The notes: generated by a model from the letters alone, not told the origin. A stretch of DNA of 32,000 bases from Alkanindiges illinoisensis DSM 15370 (GCF_000619845.1 NZ_JHUX01000003.1:180001-212000); one strand, 5' to 3'. Shown: positions 7,894 to 32,000, counted from the stretch's first letter. Program-made: numbers and translations.

Positions 7894-8616
7894 ATGAAAA
7901 CTTTACGTGTTTTAGCAGTATCTGCTGCTGTACTTGCAGTAACCAGCCCAGCATTTGCTGACGAAAAAGTAGTAACTGATGAAGGTATTGCTACTTTCTC
8001 TTTTTTTAAGCCTGCTTCTGTACGTATTGAGGGTGGTACTACAGGTTACGGTGGTGCGATTGCTTACGGCGTAAACCAGTATACTGATGTGGTACTGGGT
8101 TATAACGGCGGTGACGCTGCTGATCTGGTTGGCGGTGAAGTAAAATATAATGGCGTTGAATACGATCTGGAGCAGGATAACAATACTGCTTACCTGAACG
8201 CTGAAATTCGTCCGTTTGGCAACTGGTTCCATGTTGCGTTAGGTACAGCCTATAACGACAACGAATATAAAGTAAGCACCCGTAACAACCGTGGTGATAT
8301 TACTATTAACGGTACCAAGTTTGATAACGCTACTGCCAACGTTCGTGGCCGTATCAACTATAAAAATGATATCGTTCCATACATCGGCTTTGGCGTATCT
8401 CCTTCAATCACCAGCCGCATTGGCCTGTTCGCTCAGGTAGGTGCTTTTTATAATGGGAACCCAGAAGTTCATTTAGACACTGATACACCATTAGCTACTG
8501 GTAATAACGGTCAAACCCTGCGTGCTGCCTTGGATGAAGAAGAGCGCGATATCCGCAATGATGACAAATACAAGTGGATGCCAGTTGGTAAAGTAGGTTT
8601 AAGCTTCCGCTTCTAA
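7894..8616 (+). CDS. carO: CarO-family outer-membrane beta-barrel channel
   Basis: It has a signal peptide (MKTLRVLAVSAAVLAVTSPAFA|DE), a GAGGAG SD 8 nt upstream, and a C-terminal aromatic residue (VGLSFRF). Blocks GGTTGYGGA, LGYNGGD, YLNAEIRPFG, YKNDIVPYIGFG, IRNDDKYKWMPVGKVG match my recollection of Acinetobacter CarO. Codon usage looks like that of a highly expressed gene. Confidence 0.85.
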   Translation: MKTLRVLAVSAAVLAVTSPAFADEKVVTDEGIATFSFFKPASVRIEGGTTGYGGAIAYGVNQYTDVVLGYNGGDAADLVGGEVKYNGVEYDLEQDNNTAYLNAEIRPFGNWFHVALGTAYNDNEYKVSTRNNRGDITINGTKFDNATANVRGRINYKNDIVPYIGFGVSPSITSRIGLFAQVGAFYNGNPEVHLDTDTPLATGNNGQTLRAALDEEERDIRNDDKYKWMPVGKVGLSFRF

Positions 8617-15492: not shown

Positions 15493-15615
15493 TATTAAAT
15501 TTTTTGCGATTTCCAATGATTTCCTGAATGAGTTGGGCAGGCAGCAATCTGAACCGCTCAATTTTGCCATCAAGTTCTGCTATGCTTGCTTACCTTTGTT
15601 CAGCATCAATCGGTT

Positions 15616-16767: not shown

Positions 16768-17377
16768 TTTTGAAGGTACGGAAGGGGTAGGCAAAACCAC
16801 CCTGATTAAAAGTCTGGTAAATTATTTGCAGCAACAGGGCAAGCAAGTGGTTTTGACACGCGAACCTGGTGGCACTCCACTGGCTGAACAAATCCGTCAG
16901 TTATTGCTGAGCCCGCTGGATGAAGCTATGAGCGAAAACTGCGAACTGTTGCTGATCTTTGCTGCACGTGCCCAGCATATTGCACAGGTGATTCAACCGG
17001 CACTCAATGCAGGCCGATGGGTGCTGAGTGATCGCTTTGTTGACGCCAGTTTTGCCTATCAGGGCGGTGGCCGTGGCTTGAATGTAGACACGATTGAGTT
17101 ACTGCGCCAGCAATTTGTACCTGTAATGCCACATCTGACTTTCTGGCTGGATGCACCAGTAGAGCTTGGGATGCAACGCGCGCAAAAACGCGGAGCACTG
17201 GATCGTTTTGAACAGGAAAAACTGGAATTCTTTCAAAAAGTGCGTGCAGTTTACCAAAACCGGGCCAACGGAGAACCGGAACGTTTTGTACGGCTAGATG
17301 CTAGCCAAACGCCAGCACAAATTCTGGAGCAGGCCATTGCAGTGCTCAGGCAAAATCAACTGCTGACAGCAAACTGA
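16757..17377 (+). CDS. tmk: Thymidylate kinase
   Basis: MFISFEGTEGVGKTT P-loop, DRF motif (LSDRFVDASFAYQGGGRG), 206 aa. It overlaps the end of mltG by 11 nt. Confidence 0.92.
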   Translation: MFISFEGTEGVGKTTLIKSLVNYLQQQGKQVVLTREPGGTPLAEQIRQLLLSPLDEAMSENCELLLIFAARAQHIAQVIQPALNAGRWVLSDRFVDASFAYQGGGRGLNVDTIELLRQQFVPVMPHLTFWLDAPVELGMQRAQKRGALDRFEQEKLEFFQKVRAVYQNRANGEPERFVRLDASQTPAQILEQAIAVLRQNQLLTAN

Positions 17378-17396
17378 AACGTGAAAACCAAAAAAT

Positions 17397-17420
17397 AAAG
17401 GCAAACCTGAGTTTGCCTTT
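17397..17420. terminator. Stem-loop between convergent tmk and nadB (probable bidirectional terminator)
   Basis: AAAGGCAAAC-CTGA-GTTTGCCTTT forms a 10-bp stem whose A/T-rich ends serve both strands. Confidence 0.65.
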
Positions 17421-17461
17421 AGATCTATCAGCAGTTTTTTACTGTATTTTTTAAGGTTGCT

Positions 17462-19087
17462 TTAAACTACGATTGGTGACTGTGCAACAAAGTCCGGTGG
17501 TAGCAGAACGGTATCACGGATTTCAGTAGAGATTTCCGGATAGTCCAGCGTATAGTGCAAGCCCCGGGACTCATGACGTTGCAAGGCGCAGCGCACAATC
17601 ATTTCTGAAACCAGTACCAGATTGCGGAGTTCAATCAGGTTTTTGGTGATGACATAACCCTGATAGTAATCTTCAATTTCCCGCTTGAGTAACTCAATCC
17701 GGTTTAGCGCGCGTTGTAGGCGTTTTGTGGTACGGACAATACCCACATAGTTCCACATAAAGCTGCGCAGCTCATCCCAGTTCTGCAAAATCACTACGTC
17801 TTCATCCGGGTTTTGCACCTTGGATGCATCCCACTTCGGCACACTGGTAATAGCCTGCGTATTTGGGTGCAACTGGGCAATATGGCGTGCCGCACTCATC
17901 CCATAAACAAAACATTCCAGCAGGGAATTGCTGGCCATACGGTTGGCGCCATGCAAACCGGTAAAGGATGTTTCACCAATAGCATATAAGCCTGCAATAT
18001 CAGTCTGGCTATGATGATCCACCATTACTCCGCCGCAAGTGTAATGCGCGGCAGGCACGACAGGAATCATGTCTTTGGTAATATCAATGCCCAGTTCCAG
18101 CAGGCGTTCGTACAAAGTAGGGAAGTGGGATTTAACAAAATCTTCCGGCTGATGGGTGATATCGAGCCAGACATGACGAATACCTAGCCGCTTCATCTCA
18201 TAGTCAATGGCACGGGCCACAATATCACGTGGAGCCAGTTCAGCACTTTCATGGAAACGCTGCATAAAGCGTTCTCCATCAGGCAAGCGCAAATACGCGC
18301 CTTCACCACGCATTGCTTCCGTAATCAAAAATGAACGTGCCTGCGGGTGATAGAGGCAAGTTGGGTGAAACTGGTTAAACTCCAGATTCGCTACCCGGCA
18401 GCCCGCTCGCCATGCCATGGCAATGCCATCTCCGGTCGCAATATCCGGATTGGATGTATATAAATAAGCTTTACTGGCACCACCGCAGGCCAATGCTACA
18501 AATGGGGCCAGCAGGGTTTCAACCTGCTCAGTGTGAATATTCAGTACATATAAACCAGCGACCCGGTTATTGCCTGCAAGCCCCAGACGCTGGCTGGTAA
18601 TTACATCAATAGCCGCATAGTTTTCTAGCAACGTCACATGCTGGCATTCACGCACGCGCTTGACCAGTGTGGTTGAAATTGCCATGCCGGTTGCATCCGC
18701 CGCATGGATAATCCGGCGCTGTGAATGACCACCTTCACGGGTTAAATGTAGTTGTTCGGCTTCGTCCAGCGTAAACCGTACACCTTGTTCCAGCAGGAAA
18801 TTAACGGCATCACGGCCATGTTCTACTGTAAATGCCACTGCATCAGGGTGACACAAATGTGCGCCTGCAATTAGGGTATCTTCAACATGCTGTTCTACAG
18901 AATCAGTTTCATCCAGCACAGCAGCAACACCACCCTGCGCATAGTAGGTACTTGCTTCTGTTAATACTGATTTTGCCAGTACGGCAACTTTAAGATGAGT
19001 AGGAAGGGATAAGGCAAGGGTTAACCCGGCTGCCCCGCTTCCAACAATAATCACATCGTAAATAGATGCCTGGCTCTGGTCGCGCAT
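17462..19087 (-). CDS. nadB: L-aspartate oxidase (NadB)
   Basis: 541 aa from ATG 19087. It has the FAD-binding N-terminus [17 protein letters not shown] and motifs [11 protein letters not shown]..., HPTC and RGEGA, with the length typical of NadB. The 41-codon upstream extension in the track is hydrophobic junk translated from AT-rich intergenic DNA. Confidence 0.92.
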
Positions 19088-19343
19088 TGTAAAAAGCCTG
19101 AAATTGAATAAAAAACAGAGGCGAATAACACGCCAAAATGATAAAAAACGCAAGCTTTTTACCAAAAAAATTATGATTGGAAATATAGATTTAACTGTAT
19201 GAAATTTCACATTTTCTACATAATCTCAATTAAAGCGGGGATTTAGCTCAAATAGAAACGATTGCTAACAGAAAATCCTTAAAAACTCTGTTAAAACAGT
19301 TAACTAAATTTCTGATTACATAGACTCACTAGGAAGGCAGTCA

Positions 19344-20729
19344 ATGAGTATCAATTATATTCAACGGGGTGTTGTTGCAGCAGTATGTTCTATTGTCATT
19401 AGTCAACCCAGCATTGCAGCTGCGCCTGTTGATTTTTCGTCATTAGTTCAGACAGTAAGTCCTGCCGTAGTACGCGTTAATGTATCTAAAAAAATGAGTC
19501 AGGAAGAGTTATTACAACAACAAATGCCTGAATTATTACGCCGTTTTTTCGGTAATAATGTGCAAATCCCAAATCAACGTCTGCCACAGGAACAAAATGC
19601 CTATGGCAGTGCATTTTTTATCACTAAAGATGGTTATTTGCTTACTAACCACCATGTGATTGCCGATGCCAGCAAGGTAACCATAACATTAAATGACCGC
19701 CGTGAAATTGATGCCGAGCTAGTGGGTAGCGATGCACGTACCGATGTTGCTGTGCTGAAAGTAAAAGGCAGTGATTTTCCAGCCTTGCGTATCGGTGATG
19801 CCAACAGTCTGAAAGTGGGTGAACCTGTACTGGCCATTGGCTCACCGTTTGGTTTTGATTATTCTGCTTCCGCAGGTATTGTGAGTGCAAAGTCACGGAC
19901 CATGTCTCGTGAAAACGCAGTGCCATTTATTCAAACTGACGTTGCCCTAAATCCTGGTAACTCTGGTGGCCCATTATTCAACCGGGACGGAGAAGTAATC
20001 GGTATCAACTCACGCATCTTTAGTGGAACCGGCGGCTATATGGGTTTATCGTTTTCTATTCCAATTGATGTTGCTATGGATGTTGCCAATCAGATTATAA
20101 AAACTGGCAAGGTGTCCCGTGCTTATCTGGGTGTAATGTTGCAGGATATCGACCGAAACCTTGCCGAAGCTTATGAGTTGTCACGTCCAGAGGGAGCGCT
20201 GGTAACACAGGTTTCTGACGACACACCAGCCAGCAAGGCAGGTTTAAAGGCAGGGGATATTATCCTGTCCTATAATGGCACTCCAATTAATCGCACTACC
20301 GATCTAATTAACCTGATTAATCGCACCCGGCCAAACCAGACAGCAAGCATGGTCGTACAACGTAATAGCAAGCAGTTATCCTTAAGTGCCACATTGACCA
20401 GTGCGCCTGACGATACACCACCTGCTGAAAGCATGAAAACCGATCAGGGCAAAGGGCCTTCTCTCGGCATGCAATTGCGTGACTTAACACCAGCAGAAAG
20501 CCAGAGTTTAAAAATAAAAGGCGTCATTATTACTGATGTATTGCCGGGTGGTTTGGCCGCTCATGCGGGTTTACTGCCGGGAGATGTGATCACTAGCCTG
20601 AACAATACCCAAACACCAACAGCCACAGCATTACTGACTGCCATTCGTAGTCTTCCTTCAAACCGTGTGGTTCGGGTTGCAATTCAGCGCGATGGCGTTC
20701 CAGCAATTGTTGGGTTAAGGGTTGAATGA
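19344..20729 (+). CDS. degP: Periplasmic serine endoprotease, DegP/DegQ/MucD (HtrA) family, two PDZ domains
   Basis: It has a signal peptide (…ISQPSIAAAP) and the catalytic triad contexts TNHHVI, DVAVLKV and GNSGGPLF. Two PDZ-like segments are present (GVMLQDI...AGLKAGDIILSYNG; GVIITDVLPGGLAAHAGLLPGDVITSLN). The SD is AGGAAGG. Confidence 0.9.
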   Translation: MSINYIQRGVVAAVCSIVISQPSIAAAPVDFSSLVQTVSPAVVRVNVSKKMSQEELLQQQMPELLRRFFGNNVQIPNQRLPQEQNAYGSAFFITKDGYLLTNHHVIADASKVTITLNDRREIDAELVGSDARTDVAVLKVKGSDFPALRIGDANSLKVGEPVLAIGSPFGFDYSASAGIVSAKSRTMSRENAVPFIQTDVALNPGNSGGPLFNRDGEVIGINSRIFSGTGGYMGLSFSIPIDVAMDVANQIIKTGKVSRAYLGVMLQDIDRNLAEAYELSRPEGALVTQVSDDTPASKAGLKAGDIILSYNGTPINRTTDLINLINRTRPNQTASMVVQRNSKQLSLSATLTSAPDDTPPAESMKTDQGKGPSLGMQLRDLTPAESQSLKIKGVIITDVLPGGLAAHAGLLPGDVITSLNNTQTPTATALLTAIRSLPSNRVVRVAIQRDGVPAIVGLRVE

Positions 20730-20740
20730 AAATGATTCAA

Positions 20741-20764
20741 GCGGTATAGCTTTCCATGTACCGC
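20741..20764 (+). terminator. Stem-loop just after degP (weak terminator candidate) at the core/capsule-locus junction
   Basis: GCGGTA-N12-TACCGC starts 12 nt after the degP stop and is followed by TCCTTCAGTTTT. Confidence 0.4.
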
Positions 20765-20884
20765 TCCTTCAGTTTTATAAATTCTATATGGACTAATATA
20801 AAGTTCCTCTTTATAGTCACCGGGAATTATTAATAAAATCGTATTTATACGAATAGCGCTTGCTGACTAATTGATACCGATATT

Positions 20885-21697
20885 ATGGCTGAAGTAAACA
20901 AACCGATATACCGGCTTAAGCCCCGCAGTGGACTGGCTGTACAGTATGCTGCAATCCGGGCCTTATTTTTAAGGGAATTCCAAACTCGATTTGGACATTA
21001 TCGCCTTGGCTATGTATGGGCCATTTTAGAACCAGGTATGCTGGTATTCTTAAAGCTTGTATTGTTTGGCGGTATCATGGAACGTGCCATTCCTTATATG
21101 TCCTATACACTTTTTCTGGTTAATGGTGTACTACCAATTCGTATGTTTATGCGTTCGTCAACGCAATCCCTACATGCAGTATCTAGTAATAGGGGCTTGT
21201 TAAATTATCGTCCTGTAATGCCAGTTGATGCAGTAATTGCCCGTATATCTGTAGAAATGACATTATATTTTGGGGTATACAGCCTTTTTATGGTGGGCTT
21301 ACTCTACTTTGGTGAACCTATTAGTCTAAGTTATTTACCAAATTTATTCGTTTGCTGGTTTTTACTTTATATTTTTACTTTTGGCTTTGCATTAATTATG
21401 TGTTCTCTGGGTGATTTCTCAAAAGAAGTCGCAAAATTTGTTTCTTCATTCTTTATTATATTTTACTTAATGTCTGGCGTAATGTTTTCAATTAATAATG
21501 TGCCAGTGCAATTCCATCCTTATCTATTATGGAACCCGCTATTACATTGTCTAGAATTTATGCGTCATGCCGTATCACCCGAATATCCAGTGACTTACGT
21601 ATCTTTTAATTATCTATTAATAAGCACATTAGTTGTTTTATTTACTGGTCTTTTAATTTATAAATCACGCGAAAGAATAATGTTGACGTCAAAATGA
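20885..21697 (+). CDS. kpsM: Capsule polysaccharide ABC exporter permease KpsM (ABC-2 type)
   Basis: ALFLREFQTRFGHYRLGYVWAILEP, LLNYRPVMPVDAVIARISVEM, YLLWNPLLHCLEFMRHAV and C-terminal YKSRERIMLTSK parallel E. coli KpsM block by block (from memory). It is a six-TM ABC-2 permease, and its stop overlaps the kpsT start (ATGA). Confidence 0.92.
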   Translation: MAEVNKPIYRLKPRSGLAVQYAAIRALFLREFQTRFGHYRLGYVWAILEPGMLVFLKLVLFGGIMERAIPYMSYTLFLVNGVLPIRMFMRSSTQSLHAVSSNRGLLNYRPVMPVDAVIARISVEMTLYFGVYSLFMVGLLYFGEPISLSYLPNLFVCWFLLYIFTFGFALIMCSLGDFSKEVAKFVSSFFIIFYLMSGVMFSINNVPVQFHPYLLWNPLLHCLEFMRHAVSPEYPVTYVSFNYLLISTLVVLFTGLLIYKSRERIMLTSK

Positions 21698-22362
21698 TTA
21701 AACTAGAGAATTTGACAAAATCCTATGCCACAAAAAAAGGCCGACATTTCGTTTTCCGTAATTTAAATATTACTTTGCCTGGTGGAAAAAGCGTTGCCTT
21801 GATTGGTAAAAATGGTGCAGGGAAGAGTACACTACTACGTATTATTGGCGGTATAGATCATGCAGATTCTGGCCAAGTAGTTTCTAATGCTTCTATTTCT
21901 TGGCCAGTAGGGCTAGCAGGTGGTTTCCAGGGTAGCTTAACGGGTCGGCAAAATGTCCGTTTTGTTTCCCGATTATTTGTCCCAGAAAGCAAAGTTGATG
22001 ATATTGTACGCTACGTGGAAGACTTTGCCGAGTTAGGCAAATACTTTGATATGCCAATAAAAATTTATTCATCGGGGATGCGTTCACGTTTGGGGTTTGG
22101 CTTAAGTATGGCATTTGACTTTGATTACTACTTGCTGGATGAGGTCGGCGCTCCTGGTGATGCGCAGTTTAAAGCCAAAAGTAAGGTTTTATTAGATAAT
22201 CTAAAGAAGAACTCTAACATTATTATGGTGTCCCATAATTTAAATGACCTGACAGAGCATTGTGATGTCGCCCTCTTTGTTAAGGAAGGCAATGCTTATT
22301 ATTTTGATAGTGTTGAGGAAGCAGTAGAGGTTTATAAAGAATATGCACTGGCTCAGAAATAA
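21694..22362 (+). CDS. kpsT: Capsule polysaccharide ABC exporter ATPase KpsT
   Basis: MIKLENLTKSY..GRHFVFRNLNI, Walker A GKNGAGKSTLLRIIGGID, ISWPVGLAGGFQGSLTGRQNV, and ELGKYFDMPIKIYSSGMRSRLGFGLSMAFDFDYYLLDE are near-identical runs to E. coli KpsT as I recall it. Confidence 0.93.
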   Translation: MIKLENLTKSYATKKGRHFVFRNLNITLPGGKSVALIGKNGAGKSTLLRIIGGIDHADSGQVVSNASISWPVGLAGGFQGSLTGRQNVRFVSRLFVPESKVDDIVRYVEDFAELGKYFDMPIKIYSSGMRSRLGFGLSMAFDFDYYLLDEVGAPGDAQFKAKSKVLLDNLKKNSNIIMVSHNLNDLTEHCDVALFVKEGNAYYFDSVEEAVEVYKEYALAQK

Positions 22363-23446
22363 TTCTACCTGGTTGAGTTTTATTGCAGTAGTAATCATCC
22401 CATTACTGTTTATAGCTTTCTACTTGTTTACCATAGCTGAAAATCGTTATGTTTCTACTTCTACAGTAGTGGTGAAGCAAATTGGAGATATAGGTGGAAG
22501 CCAAACCAACGGTTTAGGTATCTTATTAGGGGTTAATAATACCAGTAGTGAAGATGCACATTTCCTTAAAGCTTACATTCAATCTCCTGACCTGATTTAT
22601 GCGCTGGATAAACAGTTGAATTTACGTAAAGCATTTGCAGGTAATGGAGGTGATCCGATTTTTGAATTATCTTCTAATGCTTCCAAAGAGGATTTGGTAA
22701 AGTATTTTAATAGACGGGTTACCCTAACGTTTGATGAAAAAAACTCGATGTTGACGGTTAAAACAGAAGGCTTTACACCTCAGTTTGCACTAAAATTGAA
22801 TCAGGCTATTTTAAAACTTAGTGAAAGCTTTATTAACCAGATTTCACAGCGAGTAGCGCGTGATCAGCTGGTGTTTGCGCAGACTCAGTTACAAGAGGCA
22901 GCTAGTAATCTAAAGCAGTCCCGTGAAAATCTGATTAGTTATCAAAACAGGAATCAGATGCTGGATCCGCAAACTACAGCTCTGGCGACTTCAAGATTAG
23001 TAATGCAACTTCAGAGCCAGTTAGCAGATTTGCAAACTCAGGAACGCACGTTACTCAGCTACCTCAATCCAGAGGCATCACAAGTAGTGGCATTACATAG
23101 CCAGATTAATGCTGTACAGCAACAAATAACCCAAGAGCAAGGCAAGCTAACTTCACCGCAGGGCGGTACCAAGTTAAACCGACGCTCTGCTGATTTTGAA
23201 GAATTAAAAGCCAAAGTGGAATTTAGCACGGATCTTTATAAACTTGCACTTGGTTCCCTGGAAAAAGCTCGATTGGAAGCAGTGCGTAAATTAAAGAATG
23301 TCGTTATTATTACAAGTCCCCAATTAGCACAGGATGCGTATTATCCACGCAAGGGCTATATTTTACTCTCAAGTTTCTTAATTTTTACCATTATATTTGG
23401 AATAGGGCAGTTGGTTGCTTCTATTATCCGTGAGCATCGGGAGTAA
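22343..23446 (+). CDS. kpsE: Capsule export inner-membrane/periplasmic adaptor KpsE (PCP-3 family, CtrB/BexC-like)
   Basis: 367 aa. It has an N-terminal TM helix (WLSFIAVVIIPLLFIAFYLF) followed by ENRYVSTSTVVVKQ, a long coiled-coil periplasmic region, and a C-terminal hydrophobic helix. Its position between kpsT (20-nt overlap) and kpsD supports the call. Confidence 0.82.
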   Translation: MHWLRNNSTWLSFIAVVIIPLLFIAFYLFTIAENRYVSTSTVVVKQIGDIGGSQTNGLGILLGVNNTSSEDAHFLKAYIQSPDLIYALDKQLNLRKAFAGNGGDPIFELSSNASKEDLVKYFNRRVTLTFDEKNSMLTVKTEGFTPQFALKLNQAILKLSESFINQISQRVARDQLVFAQTQLQEAASNLKQSRENLISYQNRNQMLDPQTTALATSRLVMQLQSQLADLQTQERTLLSYLNPEASQVVALHSQINAVQQQITQEQGKLTSPQGGTKLNRRSADFEELKAKVEFSTDLYKLALGSLEKARLEAVRKLKNVVIITSPQLAQDAYYPRKGYILLSSFLIFTIIFGIGQLVASIIREHRE

Positions 23447-23452
23447 GTTCTC

Positions 23453-25174
23453 ATGAAGCATTCAAGTTTGTTCCTAGGTATTGCGATTGTTATAAGTACC
23501 TATAGCCATGCTGCAGTTATTGACGATTTGCTTCCAGATACGAATGACTACGTGGCTGGTCCTGCCAATACTACCCGTCAGACCCCATTAAATACTGCAG
23601 AGGCAAATACAGCTCAGGCGCAAGCTGCTGCTATGTTGCAACCAAATGCAATTTTAAATCTTGGTAATTCAAGGCCAGTTTCTTTAAATCAAAATTCGCG
23701 TATGTTTGGTGCCCAGTTATTTAAGGGTGCTTTTGCCAGTAGTTCTGGGAGTACGTTTAATTCAAGCTACATTATTAATCCCGGCGATAATATTCAATTG
23801 CGACTTTGGGGGGCATATCAGTTTGCTGGTACATTAACTGTAGACCCTCAAGGCAATATTTTTGTACCAAACGTTGGGCCGCTTAAAGTTGCCGGGGTCA
23901 GCAATGGTCAGCTACAAAATATAGTTCAGCAAGCAGTACGCCGCGTATATGTATCCAATGTGGGTGTCTATGCTGCTTTGGAGCAAGCCCAACCTGTTAA
24001 GGTATTAGTTACAGGCGCAGTAGTCCAGCCAGGCTCTTATGGTGGCGTTTCAAGCGATTCTATACTGGCATATCTGGACCGTGCAGGTGGAGTTGATCCA
24101 GATCGTGGCAGTTATGTTGATATTCAAATTCTGAGAAATGGAAGATTTGTTCAGCAGGTTAATCTTTATGATTTCCTGCTGGCCGGGCAGTTACAGAATT
24201 TTGCCTTTAAGGATGGTGATGTAATTGTAGTGGCCCCACGTAAGCATACATTTTCTATTAATGGAGAAGTCTACAATGCTTACGATTTTGAGTTTGATGT
24301 ACCCCAACTTACCGTAGGCAAGGCACTATCAGTGGCTCGCCTTAAACCAGGTGCAACACACATTAGTATCAGCCGTCGTCAGGGTGCAGAGTATCGTAGT
24401 GAATACTACAGCATTGCACAAGCGCAAAATGTTGTATTACAGGATGGCGATGTAGTTGCGGTAACAGCAGATCGTTATGCTGGCACTATTCAGGTAAGAG
24501 TAGAGGGAGCCCATCAAGGTGCGCATGCAGTTGTATTGCCTTATGGTGCCACACTAAAACAGGTTATTCAGCAAATTCAGCCTAATGCATTATCGCAAAT
24601 TAATGCGATCCAATTGTTCCGTCCTTCTGTCGCGCAACGTCAAAAGGAAATGCTTAACTTGTCGTTAGATAAGCTTGAGGAGTCGACTTTATCGGTACGT
24701 TCGGCTACCCGTGAAGAGGCAGAACTTCGTTTGAAAGATGCAGAGTTAATTAAACAGTTTATTACTAAAGCACGTGTAGTACAGCCTAAAGGTCAGGTTA
24801 TCTTAAATAAAAATAATTGGGATAATATTATTTTAGAGCAAGGTGATGTGTTAAATATTCCTGAAAAAACCTCTGTTACCATGGTTCATGGTGAAGTTAT
24901 GTTCCCAAATGCTCTAAGCTGGCAGCCTGATCAACGAATTGATTATTATATCAAACAGGTGGGTGGTTATACACAGAAATCGAATAAATCCAAGTTAATA
25001 GTTGTTCATCAAAATGGTGAAGCGGAACAGGTCAGTAATAGTTATATTATCAAACAAGGCGATGAAATTATGGTCTTGCCAAAAGTTTCTACAAAAAGTG
25101 TTGAAATTGGTAGAGGTTTAACGCAGATTATTTATCAAATCGCTATTGCGGCTAAAGTTGTGTTTGATCTTTAA
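23453..25174 (+). CDS. kpsD: Capsule export periplasmic/outer-membrane protein KpsD
   Basis: There is a signal peptide, then SRMFGAQLFKGAF, LRLWGAYQFAGTLTVDPQGNIFVPNVGPLKVAGVSNGQL, RYAGTIQVRVEGAHQGAHAVVLPYG and RPSVAQRQKEMLNLSLDKLEE. These are long runs shared with E. coli KpsD as I recall it. The length (573 aa) fits KpsD rather than the shorter CtrA/Wza. Confidence 0.92.
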   Translation: MKHSSLFLGIAIVISTYSHAAVIDDLLPDTNDYVAGPANTTRQTPLNTAEANTAQAQAAAMLQPNAILNLGNSRPVSLNQNSRMFGAQLFKGAFASSSGSTFNSSYIINPGDNIQLRLWGAYQFAGTLTVDPQGNIFVPNVGPLKVAGVSNGQLQNIVQQAVRRVYVSNVGVYAALEQAQPVKVLVTGAVVQPGSYGGVSSDSILAYLDRAGGVDPDRGSYVDIQILRNGRFVQQVNLYDFLLAGQLQNFAFKDGDVIVVAPRKHTFSINGEVYNAYDFEFDVPQLTVGKALSVARLKPGATHISISRRQGAEYRSEYYSIAQAQNVVLQDGDVVAVTADRYAGTIQVRVEGAHQGAHAVVLPYGATLKQVIQQIQPNALSQINAIQLFRPSVAQRQKEMLNLSLDKLEESTLSVRSATREEAELRLKDAELIKQFITKARVVQPKGQVILNKNNWDNIILEQGDVLNIPEKTSVTMVHGEVMFPNALSWQPDQRIDYYIKQVGGYTQKSNKSKLIVVHQNGEAEQVSNSYIIKQGDEIMVLPKVSTKSVEIGRGLTQIIYQIAIAAKVVFDL

Positions 25175-25184
25175 AATCCTTAAA

Positions 25185-25212
25185 GGTGTACCATGTCGTT
25201 GTATGGTATACC
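25185..25212 (+). terminator. Stem-loop 10 nt after kpsD (possible terminator or attenuator)
   Basis: GGTGTACCAT-N8-ATGGTATACC forms 10 bp including one G.U pair. There is no clean U-tract (…TGACTTTG), so termination activity is uncertain. Confidence 0.35.
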
Positions 25213-25376
25213 TGACTTTGAATCTAATCTAGGATTTTTAATCTTAAAGGTAATGTTTAACACTGGATCAATAGTACTTATTGCTTAAATAATTCTATTA
25301 TTATAGTTTTACGTTCAAATGATTGTTAAGTTCATAACCGAAATTTTACAATAGTTTAAATCAATTTATGTAGGGC

Positions 25377-28274
25377 ATGATGGAAGAGCAAACCTTAATT
25401 CTAAATGGGCTAGAAATTAAATATAAATTTAAAGAAAAAAAGTATGATTGTGAACATTTAATTATTATATTTTCAGGATTTGCGCCTTATAAAGAGTTTA
25501 CTTATGATTTTGAAAACTCATTGGCTGTAAGCCGTGCTAATGTATTATGGATCAAAGACGATTTTAAAGAACATGCTTGTTATTATTTATGCCAAGATAT
25601 GGATTTTTACATCGAAGAAATAATTTATCAATTTATTGAACAAAAAATAAAAGAGCTGAATCTTAACCAAAAAAATGTAACGTTATTAGGATTGTCAAAG
25701 GGAGGAAGTGCAGCTCTGTATTATGGTTTGAAGTATAATTTTTCTAATATTGTATGTGCAGTACCTCAAATAAAAATTGCTTCTTATGTGTTAGGAAAAA
25801 CAAAAGTCACTGCAAAAAAAGCATCAGTAGTTGCAAAGCATATGCTAGGAGAGCATCCTCAGGCACACCATATAGTACAGCTAGATAATCTGATCCCAAG
25901 TCTTATAAAAGAAGATCAACAACTTAATAAGAATATTTATTTATTAACAGGCAAGGCTGATCCGCAATATTATACTGAAATAGAACCTATATTACCCCTA
26001 TTACGTAAATACCAAAACTTTAATTTGATTGTTTCTGAGTCTGTTTATGCAAAAAACCATGAACATATTATAAGACATAATAGTCCTTTACTAATACATC
26101 TATTAGGTTTATTAAGCGATAATTTATCTGTTTATCTAAACAACCAAAAATTTGAAAATAATCAGTATAGTATTAAAGATAAATCAGCAGAACCTATAGT
26201 TACTGTTGAAGCATTATCTTTAAAAGAGGAATGCTTATTTATAGAGGGTGTGGCATTATTAAGAGGTCTAGAAGCTGCTAATTGGGAAGATGTAAAATAT
26301 ACATTATATTTAAAAAATGCCCAACGTAATTATTCTTTTTATTTAAATAAAGGTAATCGGCCTTATTTAACACAAAAGTATTTTAATGGTGACCAAGTTA
26401 TATACGATAAAGCATATTACAAAACAAATAATGGAATTCATCTTATTAATATAGTAGAGCCAGGTATATATCATTTTAATCTTGAAGTTTGCTGTCAAGG
26501 TATTACTAAAAATGTAAAGCTTTGCACTAGCCAGCCCCTGAGTCTAACAGCTACCTCATGTGGTCATGTTTACCAAATTAGTAGTAAATCTAATGGTATT
26601 ACACTTAATGTTAAAGCTATTAGTAATTGGTCATTAAGTCAGCAATTAGATATTTTTCAGAAACAATTTAAAAAATCTGGCAAAATATGGCTATATAAAG
26701 ATAATATTTTGGCTATGCATTTTGAGAATGAAATATCCACTTTGATTATTGATGTAGTAGAAGGGAATGAAACTATTGAGATACGTTATTTCGATAAATT
26801 CCGTATTTTTACACAAGAAATTCAAGAAATTATAAATAATTTATCTGGTTCTTCACAATTAAAAAATCAGAAAGTTATAGTAAAAGTTCAACGAAAATCT
26901 ATATCAAACATTTATAGTTATTTAAATGATAATATAGGAGAGTTTTATAGGCAGTTTACTCAAAAGTTTAATGATTATTCTTACCATGAAAAGTTTACTC
27001 TAGGCAATAAAGCCTTGACGAGTAAAATCATTGCTAAACGTAGCAAGGGAGAAAGAATCTCTGTTGGTTTACTCGTTAATGATCGAACAAAATGGAATTA
27101 TGAAAGTCTGTATTATAGCTTAAATCAGAGTCAAGAGTTTAGTGTAAGGATTCTGCTAGCTCGATTACCTAGCTTTGATGATCAAGATTATGAATTAAAC
27201 AAAGAATTTTTTAGACAGATTGATAATAATATTTTATACATCAGTGAAATGGATCAGAAGGGCCGTATAAATATAATTGCTGATCAATTTGATATAATGT
27301 TTTACCAGCAACCATGGGGAATGCGATATTGGGTTAAATCACTACATACTAAAATCCTTGGATGTTTTACTCATTATGGTTATTTAATATTCGAAGATAA
27401 ACTTGATTACTGTATTGATGATTTTCATCCATTCATTTGGCGCTTCTTCGCACAAAATGAATTGCATAAACTTAATCACATTAAATTTACCCCAGCAGCT
27501 TCAGAGAGAATTCGTGTTTCTGGCTATGCCAAAATGGATGCTTATCAAGTATCAGTCCAGTCTTCTTTAGATTCAATTTGGCCGACAAATGTTGAGTCAG
27601 CTCATAGTCGAATTATTTACGCTCCCCATCATTCTGTAGGACCTTCTTTATTAAAGATAGGGACTTTTGATTGGAATCATCAAAAAATTCAGGATTTAAT
27701 GCTAAAGTATCTAGATACAGCATGGGTATATAAACCTCATGGGCGTTTGCGTTATATGGTGGCTGAACATAATATTATGACTGATGAGCAGTATCAAAAT
27801 TATCTGGGACGCTGGGCGACAAATCATAGTATTATTTACGATAATGGGAATTACTTTGATCTATTTAAAACTTCTGACGTATTAATAACTGATAGCAGTT
27901 CGTTTTTGGCGGAGTATTTCCCTACTGGTAAACCAATTATTTGGCTAGTATCTGCACGCAGTAAAATGAAGTTTAATGATTTTGGTAAACGTCTTACAGA
28001 TGGATTTTACAAAGTACATAACCTTGAAGAGCTTGAAAGCGTCTTTAACCAAGTAGTTATCCAAAAATATGATCCATTATTAAGTGTAAGGCAACAGATC
28101 ATCCAAGAATGTTTTGCTTTTAAAGCAAGTAGTGCTGAGAAGATTCATCAGTTTCTATTGGAAGAATTTCCTAAGTCTATTGTTTCACCACCAGCTAAAC
28201 CCTTGCATAGAACAACTACTGGCTCTAACTTGATAAAACTGTTTAGGAGAGCAAAAAAGTATTTAAGTAAATAG
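25377..28274 (+). CDS. 965-aa multidomain capsule 'region 2' enzyme: N-terminal alpha/beta-hydrolase-fold module + central beta-rich module + C-terminal TagF-like (CDP-alditol phosphotransferase-type, GT-B) module; candidate capsule polymerase
   Basis: aa 1-250: HLIIIFSGF..., nucleophile elbow LLGLSKGGSAALYYG (Ser107, codon 25695-25697), LLTGKADPQYY (Asp195), and NHEHIIRH (His228/230/234). aa ~270-420: a pattern of the type L.IEGVALLRG...YTLYLKN...FYL, as found in the N-terminal beta-sandwich of TagF-family enzymes. aa ~555-950: RISVGLLVND..., IIYAPHHS (Y748-S753), VYKPHGRL, and DVLITDSSSFLAEYFPTGKPIIWL (D839), resembling the YAPT(W/F)R ... LITDYSS...KPII motifs of TagF/TarF-type enzymes. A basic amphipathic C-terminal tail is present. 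The assignment is by motif only. Confidence 0.6.
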   Translation: MMEEQTLILNGLEIKYKFKEKKYDCEHLIIIFSGFAPYKEFTYDFENSLAVSRANVLWIKDDFKEHACYYLCQDMDFYIEEIIYQFIEQKIKELNLNQKNVTLLGLSKGGSAALYYGLKYNFSNIVCAVPQIKIASYVLGKTKVTAKKASVVAKHMLGEHPQAHHIVQLDNLIPSLIKEDQQLNKNIYLLTGKADPQYYTEIEPILPLLRKYQNFNLIVSESVYAKNHEHIIRHNSPLLIHLLGLLSDNLSVYLNNQKFENNQYSIKDKSAEPIVTVEALSLKEECLFIEGVALLRGLEAANWEDVKYTLYLKNAQRNYSFYLNKGNRPYLTQKYFNGDQVIYDKAYYKTNNGIHLINIVEPGIYHFNLEVCCQGITKNVKLCTSQPLSLTATSCGHVYQISSKSNGITLNVKAISNWSLSQQLDIFQKQFKKSGKIWLYKDNILAMHFENEISTLIIDVVEGNETIEIRYFDKFRIFTQEIQEIINNLSGSSQLKNQKVIVKVQRKSISNIYSYLNDNIGEFYRQFTQKFNDYSYHEKFTLGNKALTSKIIAKRSKGERISVGLLVNDRTKWNYESLYYSLNQSQEFSVRILLARLPSFDDQDYELNKEFFRQIDNNILYISEMDQKGRINIIADQFDIMFYQQPWGMRYWVKSLHTKILGCFTHYGYLIFEDKLDYCIDDFHPFIWRFFAQNELHKLNHIKFTPAASERIRVSGYAKMDAYQVSVQSSLDSIWPTNVESAHSRIIYAPHHSVGPSLLKIGTFDWNHQKIQDLMLKYLDTAWVYKPHGRLRYMVAEHNIMTDEQYQNYLGRWATNHSIIYDNGNYFDLFKTSDVLITDSSSFLAEYFPTGKPIIWLVSARSKMKFNDFGKRLTDGFYKVHNLEELESVFNQVVIQKYDPLLSVRQQIIQECFAFKASSAEKIHQFLLEEFPKSIVSPPAKPLHRTTTGSNLIKLFRRAKKYLSK

Positions 28275-28297
28275 CCAGTGAATCTTTTTTATCTATG

Positions 28298-28349
28298 AAA
28301 TCTATATCTGTACAGTTCTAATTTTTGAAAATTAGAACTGTATAGATTT
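28298..28349 (+). terminator. Long imperfect AT-rich hairpin 24 nt after the 965-aa ORF (probable terminator)
   Basis: The inner stem pairs CAGTTCTAATTTT (28313-28325) with AAAATTAGAACTG (28328-28340). The outer stem pairs AAATCTATA (28298-28306) with TATAGATTT (28341-28349). A 6-nt bulge separates the two on the left arm, giving 22 bp in total. Confidence 0.45.
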
Positions 28350-28498
28350 AATGCAAATTAACATTTATGGAATTTCTGTGGCCTTGAATAATTGGCTAAA
28401 AATTCTATCTTTCTAATTTTGTAAAAAATATTGCAACCAGATTGCAATTTTACTCTATATTAATAGTATAGATTCTTTTGTTAATCTTTAGGCCTAAA

Positions 28499-29707
28499 AT
28501 GGATCAGCTGATAAAATATCTTCAAGAAATGCTTGCAATTGTAGGCTATAAAAATGTTCATATATGGAAATACCAGCAAGATATAGCAGTAATTGAGTGC
28601 ATTGACTTTGGTGTGGCTTTTGATATCAAGCAATCGCATGGCTACTATGCTATTGATTTACTAGCCCGTAACGCTAATACACGTAAAATTTTAGCGCTTC
28701 TCTACAATGATTTTTTAACTAAACCTAAATCAAGAATTTATAAAGTTCCAGTACATAATGAATTTGCTTTAATAGCTGATTTTATAAAAAGCGAATTTTT
28801 AAAATTAGAAAATTTATTCGTAATTAAGAAAAACTGTTATGGTAGTCCTAAAATATATATGCTTGATGAGAGTAATTTTTTGCAAAAACAGGAAGCTATC
28901 AAAGTCTTCTGGTGGGATGGAGTTGCTAATTTTGGAGATATTTTAGGGCCTTGGCTCATTAGTATGATGACTAAAAGGCCTATAGTCAATGTTCGTGGAA
29001 GTAAGTCATCTAATGCTATCTTTTCAATCGGTTCAATTATTAATATGATGAATACAGATCATATTAACCCTAGTATTTGGGGAAGCGGGCTTATCAATAC
29101 AAATAGTATTCCTAAGTTAGGAGAAAAACTTGCAAAGATTAATATTAAAAAGATTACGGCAGTAAGAGGTAGGCATACTCACCATGAACTTACGCAAAAG
29201 CTGGGATATGTTATACCTGAGGTTTTCGGTGACCCTGCTTTATTACTTCCAGAATACTTTACACCTGACATTATTAAAAAAGATAGAGGTGTATTAGTTC
29301 CTCATTGGAGTCAATTTAAATTATTTGAGAATCTTTCAATAGATAATATTCAATTAGTAAATGTAGGAGATGATGCCCATAAGGTTGTATCAGATATTGC
29401 TAATGCTAAATTCTGTATTGCTACTTCTTTACATGGAATTATAGTTGCACAAGCCTACAATGTACCTTGGGTATGGTTGAATATTAAAGATAAACCCCTT
29501 CATTCAGGCAAGCACTTCAAATTTCATGATTTCTTTTCCATTTTAGAAAATGATAAAATTGTTAGGCACGATTTGAATATCTCCGATATCAGTCAGGAAA
29601 ATATTAGCCAACTAATACATAAAGCCTATCTGCCAAAATTTAACCAATATTTTAATAAAGAATCTTTAATAGAAGCTTTCTATCAATTGGAAATAAAAAA
29701 TGGGTAG
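28499..29707 (+). CDS. Polysaccharide pyruvyl transferase family protein (CsaB/WcaK-like) with an extra ~140-aa N-terminal domain
   Basis: KVFWWDGVANFGDILGPWLI (the N.GD motif opening the family domain) and CIATSLHGIIVAQAYNVPWVWL (the RLHG-type C-terminal motif) are present. The first ATG is 28499 (MDQLIKYL...); the track start 28478 is a TTG. No family was recognised for residues 1-~140. Confidence 0.7.
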   Translation: MDQLIKYLQEMLAIVGYKNVHIWKYQQDIAVIECIDFGVAFDIKQSHGYYAIDLLARNANTRKILALLYNDFLTKPKSRIYKVPVHNEFALIADFIKSEFLKLENLFVIKKNCYGSPKIYMLDESNFLQKQEAIKVFWWDGVANFGDILGPWLISMMTKRPIVNVRGSKSSNAIFSIGSIINMMNTDHINPSIWGSGLINTNSIPKLGEKLAKINIKKITAVRGRHTHHELTQKLGYVIPEVFGDPALLLPEYFTPDIIKKDRGVLVPHWSQFKLFENLSIDNIQLVNVGDDAHKVVSDIANAKFCIATSLHGIIVAQAYNVPWVWLNIKDKPLHSGKHFKFHDFFSILENDKIVRHDLNISDISQENISQLIHKAYLPKFNQYFNKESLIEAFYQLEIKNG

Positions 29708-29851
29708 TTTGCATTTGTTAAAATTAACACTTTTTCAAATAAAACAAAAAGCTTTATAGTGTCTACACATTTGTTATGATAGGGACTATCAGTTAAATAC
29801 GTGTGATAGCGAAACTAGTTGGTATTATATGTTTTAATTAAAATAGTTAAC

Positions 29852-31219
29852 ATGAAAATTGGAGAAATGGGCTCTGCAATGAAAAATTCTTGGTCGATAG
29901 TAGTAACTGCAAAAGCATTACCAGAAAATATTAATATTTTTATAGAACACCATTTAAAGCTTAATCCTAAAGAAATTTTTTTATTTCTAGACGCTCCTGA
30001 TGACTTTGATAATTCACAAGATTTAGTCAAAGCTGATAGTTTAAGAATAATTGAATGTACGCCAGAATTTTGGAAATCAAGGCCACATTTTCATATGCTT
30101 AGATATGAAAAAGGAGTGCGTCCTGAATTAGTAGAATATCGTCAATACCATAATATGCTACATGCTCATTCAATTAGTGACGCCGAGTGGCTGCTTATGA
30201 TGGATATAGATGAGCTATTATATACAAGATCAGACGTAGGAAATTTGCTAAATAAGTATCCTGATAATATTTTTTCAATTTTATTGATGCCAATTGAAGC
30301 GGTTTACAAGGATGATCCTCCAGTTAGTTTTAAAGAAGTATTTGATACAGACTTTTTTAAAACAAGAAAAAAAGTAAACTATGAGTATTGGAATAAAATA
30401 TATGACAGGGAAGGAATCTATCATAAATCTGGTTTTTTCGGCCATGTTACCGGGAAATCTTTTACTCGGGTAAATAAGGAAATAATGCAACCATCTTGTC
30501 ATTTAAATAAACCACTTGACCGTGATTTAGGTTATGCATTTATTGAAGAAAATATGAATATTATGCATTTTGAATCTCAAACACTTGAGATGTTTTCTCA
30601 AAAAATTATTAATAGGTCTAGTAAAAAGTTTAATGTTGGTTTTCTAGATGAGATAAGTGTCAAACGTACCAATAATATAATTAGTATCTATAAAGAAAAA
30701 GGTGAATTAGCCTTATTAGATATATATTTATATATGCATGTTTTTTCAAAAGAAAAAATTAATAAGATTTTAAATGATGGATATATATTAGAAATTACGG
30801 ACAAGACTACTTCAGACTATGTATTTGATCATAAAATAGTTTCTTTCCACCATAGTGTTTTAGTTTATGATCATTCAAAAGATATTGTAATTGCTTTAAA
30901 AGAAGAGGATATTTCTTCCTCTATACATTCAATTGTGAAAATTGCAATAAATAAAGAACGTGTAGATATAGAATCAAAGGCTTTTTTATATTTTGAATAT
31001 AATTATAAAATAGAATATTTATGTGTGGATAGAGATGGAAAAATTATAATATTTAGATCAAATAAAGCCCAATTATTAAATTATTTCACTGATAACAATT
31101 ATTTTTCATTATCAATTGATAATAAATATATAACAGTGAAGCCTAGTTGTGAGGTTTTATTTAAAGCAGAAAAAATTAATAAATGGGAGCAACTATATAA
31201 ATTTAATTTTAGAAGTTAA
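29852..31219 (+). CDS. Family-2-type glycosyltransferase (Glyco_tranf_2_4-like N-terminal domain) with a ~190-aa C-terminal domain of unknown function
   Basis: WSIVVTAKALPENINIFIEHHLKLNPKEIFLFLDAPDD and the DxD-type motif WLLMMDIDELLY fit a GT-A fold. The start is ambiguous: ATG 29852, 29867 or 29879, and the track start 29819 is a TTG. The C-terminal third (from ~aa 280) has no motif I recognise. Confidence 0.6.
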   Translation: MKIGEMGSAMKNSWSIVVTAKALPENINIFIEHHLKLNPKEIFLFLDAPDDFDNSQDLVKADSLRIIECTPEFWKSRPHFHMLRYEKGVRPELVEYRQYHNMLHAHSISDAEWLLMMDIDELLYTRSDVGNLLNKYPDNIFSILLMPIEAVYKDDPPVSFKEVFDTDFFKTRKKVNYEYWNKIYDREGIYHKSGFFGHVTGKSFTRVNKEIMQPSCHLNKPLDRDLGYAFIEENMNIMHFESQTLEMFSQKIINRSSKKFNVGFLDEISVKRTNNIISIYKEKGELALLDIYLYMHVFSKEKINKILNDGYILEITDKTTSDYVFDHKIVSFHHSVLVYDHSKDIVIALKEEDISSSIHSIVKIAINKERVDIESKAFLYFEYNYKIEYLCVDRDGKIIIFRSNKAQLLNYFTDNNYFSLSIDNKYITVKPSCEVLFKAEKINKWEQLYKFNFRS

Positions 31220-31255
31220 GTAGGTTAAGATAATTAATTAAAAAATAATTTTCCT

Positions 31256-31293
31256 TAGGGTAATAGTAAAATTTAGAAGTATTTATTACCCTA
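31256..31293 (+). other. Stem-loop after the glycosyltransferase gene
   Basis: TAGGGTAATA (31256-31265) pairs with TATTACCCTA (31284-31293), a perfect 10-bp inverted repeat with an 18-nt loop, 37 nt after the stop codon. Confidence 0.35.
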
Positions 31294-31527
31294 GAATATA
31301 TTATTATATAATGATATCGATACCTAATATAATTCACTTACTTTATATCTAAAAATATATGTTTTATCCCTCATGAGAGGGAAATATTATTGTAAATAGC
31401 TAAAATTACAAAGTTTTTATGTATAAATTTTCATTACTATATTGTAATCTTTCTACTACTAATCTTAAGACAAAATTGTTTTACAATTAACTTTTAAAAT
31501 TTTGCAATCGTAGCGGGAATTAGTTGT

Positions 31528-32000
31528 ATGAGTAAAATCACAAAATTAATTAACACACCTAACATTTTTTTTAAAGATATGGCTTACAAGACTCTGACCC
31601 AGCGTTTGCCTATGTTATTAGACAATTTAGGCAATAGACTAGAAGTTTTCGACACAAGCCCGAGCCCCGCAAAAAAAGTACCTGTGACTAAGCGACCTGT
31701 TTCTTCAACTAAAGCAGATAATTCAGTAGCAGCAAAAACTATAATACCTTCCTCGATAAATTTGAGTCATATTAATCTCCTGTCACCTATTTATCATATT
31801 ATACATACCGGAGAAGGTATGACTCATGGTCCATCACATTTAAGTTTATGGATTCCAACTTTTTTGACCACACAAATATCTTTTGCTGTCATCGTTCGTA
31901 ACGTAGATTTATATAATTGGGTGGTTGAAAAATATCCTTTTATTAATGTTGCCTATGCTAAAACACCTATAGATATTGAAAATCTATTAAACAATATGGC
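31528..32000 (+). CDS. Capsule-cassette ORF, 5' part only (runs off the window); function unassigned
   Basis: ATG 31528 opens a frame that stays open to the window end (157 codons) and is missing from the ORF track because it is incomplete. Hand translation: MSKITKLINTPNIFFKDMAYKTL...VPVTKRPVSSTKADNS...PIYHIIHTGEGMTHGPSHLSLWIPTFLTTQISFAVIVRNVDLYNWVVEKYPFINVAYAKTP. The N-terminal KL..P..FFKD motif resembles the N-termini of several capsule biosynthesis enzymes as I remember them. Confidence 0.55.
   Translation, partial: MSKITKLINTPNIFFKDMAYKTLTQRLPMLLDNLGNRLEVFDTSPSPAKKVPVTKRPVSSTKADNSVAAKTIIPSSINLSHINLLSPIYHIIHTGEGMTHGPSHLSLWIPTFLTTQISFAVIVRNVDLYNWVVEKYPFINVAYAKTPIDIENLLNNM

Follow-up and report, generated by a model that had tools for sequence, protein, structure and literature searches.

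A capsule-locus protein of Alkanindiges illinoisensis joining a predicted CsaC-like O-acetyltransferase to a divergent TagF-like phosphotransferase

What does a 965-amino-acid (aa) protein named after an accessory secretion system do inside a bacterial capsule locus? The question is raised by a 32,000-nucleotide stretch of the Alkanindiges illinoisensis DSM 15370 genome (a soil bacterium of the Moraxellaceae; GCF_000619845.1, NZ_JHUX01000003.1:180001-212000), hereafter the window, which contains a single open reading frame (ORF) of this length, here called X965. The ORF starts with ATG, the corresponding Logan gene model begins one Met later, and the product is identical at 965/965 residues to RefSeq WP_051526466.1, 'accessory Sec system protein Asp2'. 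Comparison of the protein, its relatives and its gene neighbours suggests instead that X965 is a capsule-locus enzyme in which a CsaC-like O-acetyltransferase is joined to a TagF-like phosphotransferase. Both parts would be of known kinds, and the newness lies in the domain architecture, in a clade of TagF-like proteins with Tyr at a canonical His position and in the host group. With a probability of about 60%, we read X965 as half of a capsule polymerase, the half that transfers polyol-phosphate (probably ribitol-phosphate), joined in one chain to the enzyme that O-acetylates the same polymer. A first-pass annotation, made from the sequence of the window, had described three modules; this layout is essentially upheld, and BLAST coverage and AlphaFold2 (AF2) models are better fitted by four parts, namely hydrolase, beta, linker and GT-B (Table 1). 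The motifs it had listed are all found at the residues it gave, with GLSKGG at 105-110, GKADP at 192-196, NHEHIIRH at 227-234, QQPWG at 644-648, YAPHHS at 748-753, KPHGR at 786-790, LITDSSSF at 836-843 and GKPII at 851-855.

The N-terminal domain is linked to CsaC by both sequence and structure. A phmmer search of the N-terminal part against PDB sequences matches only the capsule O-acetyltransferase SacC/CsaC of Neisseria meningitidis serogroup A (6yuo, E 2.4e-13, aa 23-204). When aa 1-545 are modelled with AF2, aa 1-255 receive a high predicted local distance difference test (pLDDT) score, and CsaC entries occupy Foldseek ranks 1-5 for this model (E 2e-12, template modelling (TM) score 0.70-0.73, 25-26% identity). 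CsaC employs the triad Ser114/His228/Asp198 and an extended network of Gln138/His201/Tyr79, with Arg148 positioning the acceptor (PMC7501274). Inspection of the phmmer alignment places Ser107, Asp195 and His228 of X965 on CsaC Ser114, Asp198 and His228, where Ser107 lies in the nucleophile elbow G105-L-S107-K-G109 (GxSxG), and likewise places Gln131 and Tyr69 on Gln138 and Tyr79. Among 31 family members none departs from Ser107 or Asp195, and each of His228, Gln131 and Tyr69 is kept in at least 90%. The Ser107/Asp/His order and, of the O-acetyltransferases or esterases considered in the first-pass annotation, the likeness to CsaC are therefore borne out, CsaC being closest by sequence and by structure, and the hydrolase match that it expected on aa 1-250 is the one to SacC/CsaC found by phmmer and Foldseek. 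The NCBIfam XcbB/CpsF capsule model gives 43 bits on X965 against a cutoff of 125. Judged by these comparisons, aa 1-255 would work like CsaC, as a distant member of that kind and not as Asp2. CsaC (also SacC or MynC; PDB 6YUO/6YUQ/6YUS) and X965 are alike in fold, GxSxG motif, triad and the additional Gln and Tyr, and the genes of both lie in region 2 of a capsule locus with ABC-transporter-dependent export, which for CsaC makes a phosphodiester-linked polymer. They differ in that CsaC is a free-standing protein of 247 aa with ~26% identity, whereas X965 adds a beta domain and a TagF-like enzyme and has Tyr198, the family consensus, at the position of CsaC His201.

The RefSeq name of WP_051526466.1 is a misannotation, prompted by similarity around the nucleophile elbow that stays below threshold. 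Two Asp2 models do respond to X965, Pfam Asp2 (PF16929) at 27.3 bits and TIGR03712 at 25.5 bits. Asp2 (Gap123) stands at Foldseek rank 9, after esterases. Both scores fall below their cutoffs (28 and 210.75, respectively), and the match is confined to aa 53-148. Asp2 itself is a glycan O-acetyltransferase. Its likeness to X965 comprises the alpha/beta-hydrolase fold and the nucleophile-elbow region, and X965 differs from this Gram-positive accessory Sec protein in architecture and genomic context, its gene being part of a Gram-negative kps capsule operon with no accessory Sec genes in the window. Given the sub-cutoff scores and the absence of SecA2/SecY2-type context in the window, membership in Asp2 is refuted, with only the fold in common; we see next to no chance that the name is right, and for this protein it needs correction. 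Several stand-alone homologues carry the same name.

Between the acetyltransferase and the TagF-like domain lie a beta domain and a linker. The former (aa ~263-420, of which ~270-415 are confidently all-beta) consists entirely of strands in the AF2 model with a pLDDT of ~88-95, while the latter (aa ~421-545) has low pLDDT, ends in a long helix (aa 509-556) and is common to X965, P0111, P0112, P0032, P0034 and P0113 as judged by BLAST coverage. A domain census of the 254 relatives retrieved counts 154 proteins with the TagF-like domain only, 68 with acetyltransferase plus beta, 26 with the acetyltransferase only, 5 with the whole fusion and 1 (P0112) with beta plus TagF-like domain without the acetyltransferase. 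That is to say, the beta domain occurs in just 1/155 non-fusion TagF-like proteins and in 68 non-fusion acetyltransferase proteins, and in stand-alone relatives it follows the acetyltransferase once (~410-aa proteins) or twice (~546-aa proteins). Its profile has no match among PDB sequences, and aa 255-545 of X965, which hold it, have no significant Pfam match. Because of this census and the absent Pfam and PDB matches, the first-pass reading of the central module as an N-terminal domain of TagF-family enzymes is unsupported. The distribution points instead to a domain that is accessory to the acetyltransferases of this family and perhaps binds the polymer.

The C-terminal domain is placed by its family. 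Searches return 79 homologues of this part (E down to 2e-89, 23-44% identity), most of them with PF04464, and in an alignment of 56 sequences (55 homologues plus X965) this model is matched by 52 at E<=1e-3 and Epimerase_2 by 4. The full-length relative P0111 scores 30 bits with PF04464. A phmmer search of the C-terminal half against the PDB gives nothing real, and TarL is reached by the family profile only, with Staphylococcus aureus TarL (8VA1) matched at E 2.6e-5 over the C-terminal half only. In that alignment K786-P787-H788 falls on K-M-H433-P, Y-A-P-H-H-S on F-A-P-T-F-R, S-G-Y-A-K-M-D on T-G-V-P-R-T-D, and D839-S-S-S…E846-Y on D-Y-S-S…E-Y. TarL His433 touches the alpha-phosphate of cytidine diphosphate (CDP)-ribitol and is the counterpart of TagF His584 (PMC10901376). 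The AF2 model of the C-terminal part adopts a GT-B fold (pLDDT 89.9, predicted TM score 0.85). Invariant in 56/56 sequences are Phe642, Tyr667, Gly716, Asp721, Pro750, Pro787, His788, Ser842, Pro853, Asp899 and Arg905, with His751, His752, Asp839 and Glu846 conserved at >=89%, and X965 retains every one of these columns. The TarL profile match, the modelled GT-B fold and the homologues with PF04464 together favour the GT-B TagF-like module proposed in the first-pass annotation. In the basic tail that follows, AF2 predicts a helix at model residues 449-465 with low pLDDT; this stretch, whose sequence is not kept in P0111, may be a membrane-associating amphipathic helix.

One part of the domain departs from canonical TagF and TarL, which carry a catalytic His in a WHG motif. 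In the AF2 model the strand aligned to TarL 'AYVSS' comes immediately after a strand L-G-C-F, which is followed by T665-H666-Y667-G668, and Tyr667 is present in 56/56 sequences, His666 in 16/56. Because of this strand order and the TarL alignment, the WHG position is placed at T-H-Y-G, most likely with Tyr667 replacing TagF His444/TarL His300. QQPWG, previously taken for the WHG equivalent, follows the strand before, that is, one beta-strand too early, and is rejected in favour of the Tyr667 loop. Cps7A, a proven glycerol-3-phosphate transferase, provides a precedent in which Tyr94 superimposes on TagF His444, and the WHG variants QHG and QYA are known, QHG in hexose-phosphate transferases (PMC11666461). 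A sizeable TagF-like clade with invariant Tyr in place of the 'essential' WHG His would bear on the catalytic mechanism of the family.

The gene neighbourhood provides the evidence on the donor. KpsMTED and KpsC surrounding a variable region 2 identify the locus, by homology, as of the ABC-transporter-dependent ('group 2') capsule type. Logan contig L090 matches window 15380-32000 at 100% identity over 16,621 bp and extends 6.3 kb further, where past the glycosyltransferase family 2 (GT2)-like gene it encodes a 454-aa TagF-like protein, a 457-aa fusion of IspD and short-chain dehydrogenase, a 366-aa TagF-like paralogue, a 337-aa beta-propeller protein and KpsC, in this order. The 457-aa fusion scores 166.9 with the NCBIfam D-ribitol-5-phosphate cytidylyltransferase model (cutoff 166), and its architecture is that of Bcs1, the CDP-ribitol synthase of Haemophilus influenzae b (PMC10299916); a CDP-polyol synthase gene thus accompanies X965 in the same locus. 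The 454-aa protein matches PF04464 at 22.7 bits with canonical G-H-G and K-L-H-P motifs, and both it and the 366-aa paralogue keep the canonical H-G and H-P histidines. The cassette of TagF-like protein (430-454 aa), CDP-ribitol synthase and TagF-like paralogue (366-387 aa) recurs with 41-68% identity in L065 (Acinetobacter sp. LoGeW2-3) and in the metagenomic locus L066. No terminator-like sites are found within 25100-28550, including both gaps flanking X965, and a promoter scan gives 27 sites against 21.8 ± 5.0 expected, which is not above chance.

Loci of relatives extend this pattern. A TagD-like glycerol-3-phosphate cytidylyltransferase gene lies directly downstream of family members in L066/67/68, L074, L075, L076, L077, L079 and L089, while L062 has an IspD-like gene as immediate neighbour and L065, L077, L078, L085 and L088 have one in the vicinity. 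These TagD-/IspD-like neighbours and the CDP-ribitol synthase in the X965 locus support a CDP-polyol as donor, here most likely CDP-ribitol. An N-terminal glycosyltransferase is present in 10/10 long homologues examined (nine GT2, one GT4), as well as in P0113 and P0035. Fusion of a glycosyltransferase to a TagF-like domain, usually with a TPR domain, is the capsule-polymerase architecture of Litschko et al. 2018 (PMC5974469), and since the relatives carry glycosyltransferase domains like those polymerases, we infer that the subfamily supplies the phosphotransferase half of alternating polymerases. X965 itself is without a glycosyltransferase or TPR domain in Pfam searches, the GT2-like protein being encoded by a separate gene.

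Homologies, conserved residues, locus content and the scarcity of the fusion are results of the comparisons; donor, acceptor, polymerase role and any coupling of the two activities are inferred from them and are assembled here into a proposed mechanism. The Bcs1-like synthase of the locus would supply CDP-ribitol, from which the TagF-like domain would add ribitol-5-phosphate to the growing capsule chain, in alternation with the separate GT2-like glycosyltransferase as candidate sugar-adding partner, to yield a teichoic-acid-like poly(glycosyl-ribitol-phosphate). His788 (K-P-H) would act on the phosphate of cytidine monophosphate like TagF His584/TarL His433, and the invariant Tyr667 would stand in for the acceptor-activating WHG His, as in Cps7A. 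The N-terminal domain would O-acetylate the same polymer by a ping-pong reaction in which acetyl-coenzyme A acetylates Ser107 and the acetyl group passes to a polymer hydroxyl (Ser107/His228/Asp195), while the polymer is probably held with the aid of the beta domain. In Actinobacillus pleuropneumoniae, cpsA-cpsB-cpsC builds a poly(glycerol-phosphate) linker on the 3-deoxy-D-manno-octulosonic acid (Kdo) glycolipid (PMC11666461). Because the second TagF-like gene, the CDP-ribitol synthase gene and the third TagF-like gene follow this gene order, the two small TagF-like proteins, both with the canonical histidines, would build a linker on the Kdo-glycolipid, matching CpsA and CpsC. The pyruvyltransferase-like protein would be a further polymer modifier, and its gene suggests a pyruvylated ribitol-phosphate capsule.

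Several findings weigh against this proposal or speak for its rivals. At the N-terminus, sequence alone cannot separate an acetyltransferase from an esterase, and CsaC His201 is Tyr198 here. Hydrolases make up most alpha/beta-hydrolase-fold proteins and esterases and lipases predominate at Foldseek ranks 6-50, so that a de-O-acetylase or other hydrolase has to be considered; we hold it to be improbable, as the nearest protein in sequence and structure is the acetyltransferase CsaC, the CsaC-specific Gln138 and Tyr79 are kept, and the gene lies within a cytoplasmic biosynthesis operon. At the C-terminus, PF04464 scores 20.1 bits on X965 (21.5 with the C-terminal half) against a cutoff of 22.1 and covers aa 819-857 only. 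It is thus the homologues that carry the family assignment, and the PF04464 match anticipated on aa ~555-950 is seen in the aligned family, not above cutoff in X965 itself. The best 50 Foldseek matches of the C-terminal model are all UDP-GlcNAc 2-epimerases (E ~1e-12, TM 0.45-0.67), with TagF and TarL absent from these 50; the structure search that the first-pass annotation had suggested against TagF thus returned the GT-B fold without TagF itself among these best matches. A UDP-GlcNAc 2-epimerase-like domain, which beside the CsaC-like one would mirror the meningococcus A pair CsaA/CsaC, also finds support in the four family members that weakly match Epimerase_2. Against it, TM values of 0.45-0.67 are those expected among GT-B relatives, the PDB profile search returns TarL and no epimerase, most of the aligned family matches PF04464, and the domain has K-P-H and D-x-S-S..E-Y motifs of TagF type. 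FYQQPWG and FTHYGY are read here on the strands where epimerases carry their acidic catalytic residues. Since the sequence evidence favours TagF-like enzymes, we read the epimerase matches as fold-level and reject this assignment, which strikes us as very improbable. The last structural point concerns the proposed base: no His is conserved in the N-terminal Rossmann half of the 56 aligned sequences, so the canonical WHG His is absent, and Tyr667 is mapped from predicted strand order and spacing, not from superposition.

Donor and role meet objections of their own. CDP-ribitol could serve solely the two small canonical TagF-like proteins and free X965 for another donor, and the characterised GT-A/TagF-like polymerases transfer hexose-phosphate (PMC5974469). 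The TagF-like domain might then be a hexose-1-phosphate transferase with a UDP-sugar as donor, like CslB and Cps1B, giving a poly(oligosaccharide phosphate) acetylated by the CsaC-like domain, with CDP-ribitol consumed by the linker enzymes only. The architecture of the homologues, the variation of WHG (QHG) in hexose-phosphate transferases and the action of CsaC on a hexose-1-phosphate polymer all agree with such an enzyme. We nevertheless consider it unlikely, if the least unlikely of the rivals, for family members directly adjoin TagD-/IspD-like genes in many loci not otherwise related, where frequently no other TagF-like gene is near, and the motif in the X965 family is x-Y-G and not QHG. 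Cps7A suggests another role, that of a transition (priming) transferase which places the first polyol-phosphate onto the poly-Kdo glycolipid and does not polymerise repeat units. Cps7A combines Tyr at the TagF His444 position with a His-His pair, and X965 has Tyr667 together with His751-His752. Usual fusion of the subfamily to a glycosyltransferase fits an alternating polymerase and not a primer, and the conserved pair of small TagF-like proteins around the CDP-ribitol synthase already fits the CpsA and CpsC roles, which makes a priming function rather unlikely as well. Polymerisation with CDP-ribitol as donor remains our preferred reading.

The fusion is rare. An exhaustive HMMER scan of 1.84 billion cluster representatives gives 3158 matches, 2 of them full-length: P0001, the representative of X965's own cluster (94% identical), and P0111, a 927-aa protein with 38% identity to X965 over aa 10-931. 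In L064 the gene for P0111 comes directly after kpsE-kpsD; downstream of it are a GT2 gene and a gene homologous to the second TagF-like one. P0112, from Acinetobacter sp. LoGeW2-3 (L065), shares 47% identity with P0111 over beta domain, linker and TagF-like core and has a GT32-like N-terminus unrelated to the CsaC-like module of P0111. Because the two share the core and have unrelated N-termini, the N-terminal catalytic module has been exchanged on a conserved core, clear evidence of module swapping among capsule enzymes. In a wider view, this module would be exchangeable in evolution, CsaC-like in X965 and P0111, GT32-like in P0112 and GT2 or GT4 in others. P0006 is a stand-alone acetyltransferase with beta domain whose gene, in a kps locus, has genes for a Stealth protein and a GT2-TagF-TPR polymerase of 1393 aa as neighbours; here the same two partners are seen unfused. 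Scans with X965 across GTDB species-representative genomes return no relative, the representative A. illinoisensis genome being without the locus, and a metagenome contig scan with the fusion alignment returns C-terminal-type relatives only and no further fusions. In the literature we found no description of an O-acetyltransferase domain within a capsule polymerase. The first-pass annotation knew of no description of such a hydrolase-fold/TagF-like fusion, which is indeed rare and undescribed; the genus it had in mind, Acinetobacter, was wrong: the host is Alkanindiges, and a related locus does occur in Acinetobacter sp. LoGeW2-3. Taken jointly, the coupling of ribitol-phosphate polymerisation and O-acetylation in one polypeptide, a Tyr-for-His TagF-like clade and an exchangeable N-terminal module form a tentative picture, to which we would give clearly less than even odds.

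Comparison with known systems separates what X965 shares from what it does not. Cps1B, CslB, Cps3D/Cps7D, Bcs3 and TagF/TarL resemble it in GT-B fold, HP-type His, and AP… and D-x-S-S…E motifs, and the TagF-like capsule polymerases also in multidomain design and in a kps context with a CDP-polyol synthase, the relatives of X965 being GT-A/GT-B-fused. In contrast to these polymerases, X965 is very divergent (TarL is the only PDB match, the WHG His gives way to Tyr, and there is no TPR), and it is fused to an O-acetyltransferase and a beta domain with the glycosyltransferase as a separate gene. Cps7A, set beside X965 by its published description, is a TagF-like glycerol-3-phosphate transferase that likewise has Tyr at the His444 position, and the Cps7A/Cps7B/Cps7C order of TagF-like protein, cytidylyltransferase and TagF-like protein is that of the X965-locus cassette. 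Cps7B is a CDP-glycerol synthase, whereas the cassette here is predicted to make CDP-ribitol; unlike in the Cps7A cassette, the TagF-like proteins of this one keep His-Gly, and the Tyr variant sits in X965.

If the coupled reading is true, the nascent chain would be acetylated during its synthesis, and a large uncharacterised clade would use a different acceptor-activating residue. For their stability and immunogenicity, phosphodiester-linked polymers in glycoconjugate vaccines depend critically on O-acetylation (PMC7501274). TagF-like capsule polymerases and CsaC are tools for the enzymatic synthesis of such vaccine antigens, and a natural fusion of both activities would be a ready design for one-pot production of acetylated teichoic-acid-like polymers and would test whether modification is coupled to polymerisation.

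The locus as a whole is a strain-variable capsule island. The neighbouring DegP has 99% protein identity to that of A. illinoisensis NFYY 23406, and the whole kps locus (window 20730-32000) is absent directly after degP in that strain. At the same site A. hydrocarboniclasticus and several Moraxellaceae metagenome-assembled genomes carry kpsMTED, and the region-2 proteins of the window have no match in those other loci (L002-L005 and L008 compared). Region 2 (window 25000-32000) has a guanine-plus-cytosine (GC) content of 22-34% against 45-50% in flanking housekeeping genes, a low value that is typical of exchanged serotype-specific capsule regions. Homologues of the pyruvyltransferase-like gene are absent from the related loci L064 and L065, and neither its product nor the GT2-like protein has a match among PDB sequences. 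Moraxellaceae capsule work has centred on Wzy-dependent loci, and our literature search found nothing relevant on kps capsules of Alkanindiges or Acinetobacter. Among environmental Moraxellaceae, Alkanindiges and at least one Acinetobacter have ABC-transporter-dependent loci of ribitol-phosphate type in the form of variable islands.

Table 1. Domains of X965 and genes of the capsule locus, in window coordinates.
Feature	Position	Strand	Basis
Whole ORF X965	25377..28274	+	ORF listing; identical to P0251 965/965
CsaC-type alpha/beta-hydrolase O-acetyltransferase domain (predicted), aa 1-255	25377..26141	+	phmmer vs PDB, Foldseek, conservation
All-beta accessory domain (predicted), aa ~263-420	26163..26636	+	AF2 strands, domain census
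Linker, aa ~421-545	26637..27011	+	BLAST coverage, low pLDDT, helix in model
Divergent TagF-like GT-B phosphotransferase domain (predicted), aa ~546-935	27012..28181	+	homologues, PF04464, TarL, AF2
Basic C-terminal tail, aa 936-965 (…LIKLFRRAKKYLSK)	28182..28271	+	AF2 helix
kpsM	20885-21697	+	Pfam/NCBIfam
kpsT	21694-22362	+	Pfam/NCBIfam
kpsE	22343-23446	+	Pfam/NCBIfam
kpsD	23453-25174	+	Pfam/NCBIfam
Polysaccharide pyruvyltransferase-like gene	28478..29707	+	PF04230 47.9 bits vs cutoff 25.3; 402 aa in L090
GT2-like glycosyltransferase, second gene downstream of X965	29819..31219	+	PF13704 Glyco_tranf_2_4 31.9 bits vs cutoff 27.5
Second TagF-like gene, 5' part	31528..32000, runs off window end; full L090 16149-17513	+	tblastn, translation

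Other parts of the window and its extension hold minor features. In the housekeeping part, the ORFs at 1230-1643 (+, 137 aa) and 7894-8616 (+, 240 aa) have no Pfam match at E<=1e-5. Between the GT2-like and second TagF-like genes, positions 31220-31527 form a very AT-rich stretch of 308 bp with no ORF, which may mark a recombination seam or contain an internal promoter. The gene for the 337-aa protein (L090 20141-21154, -) starts some 4.8 kb beyond the window and separates the third TagF-like gene from kpsC, with the opposite orientation. Its product combines a hydrophobic N-terminus with a beta-propeller of five blades (PF21311 Phage_RBD_prop, 62 bits), is unusual company for capsule genes and might be a glycan-binding or glycan-cleaving protein.

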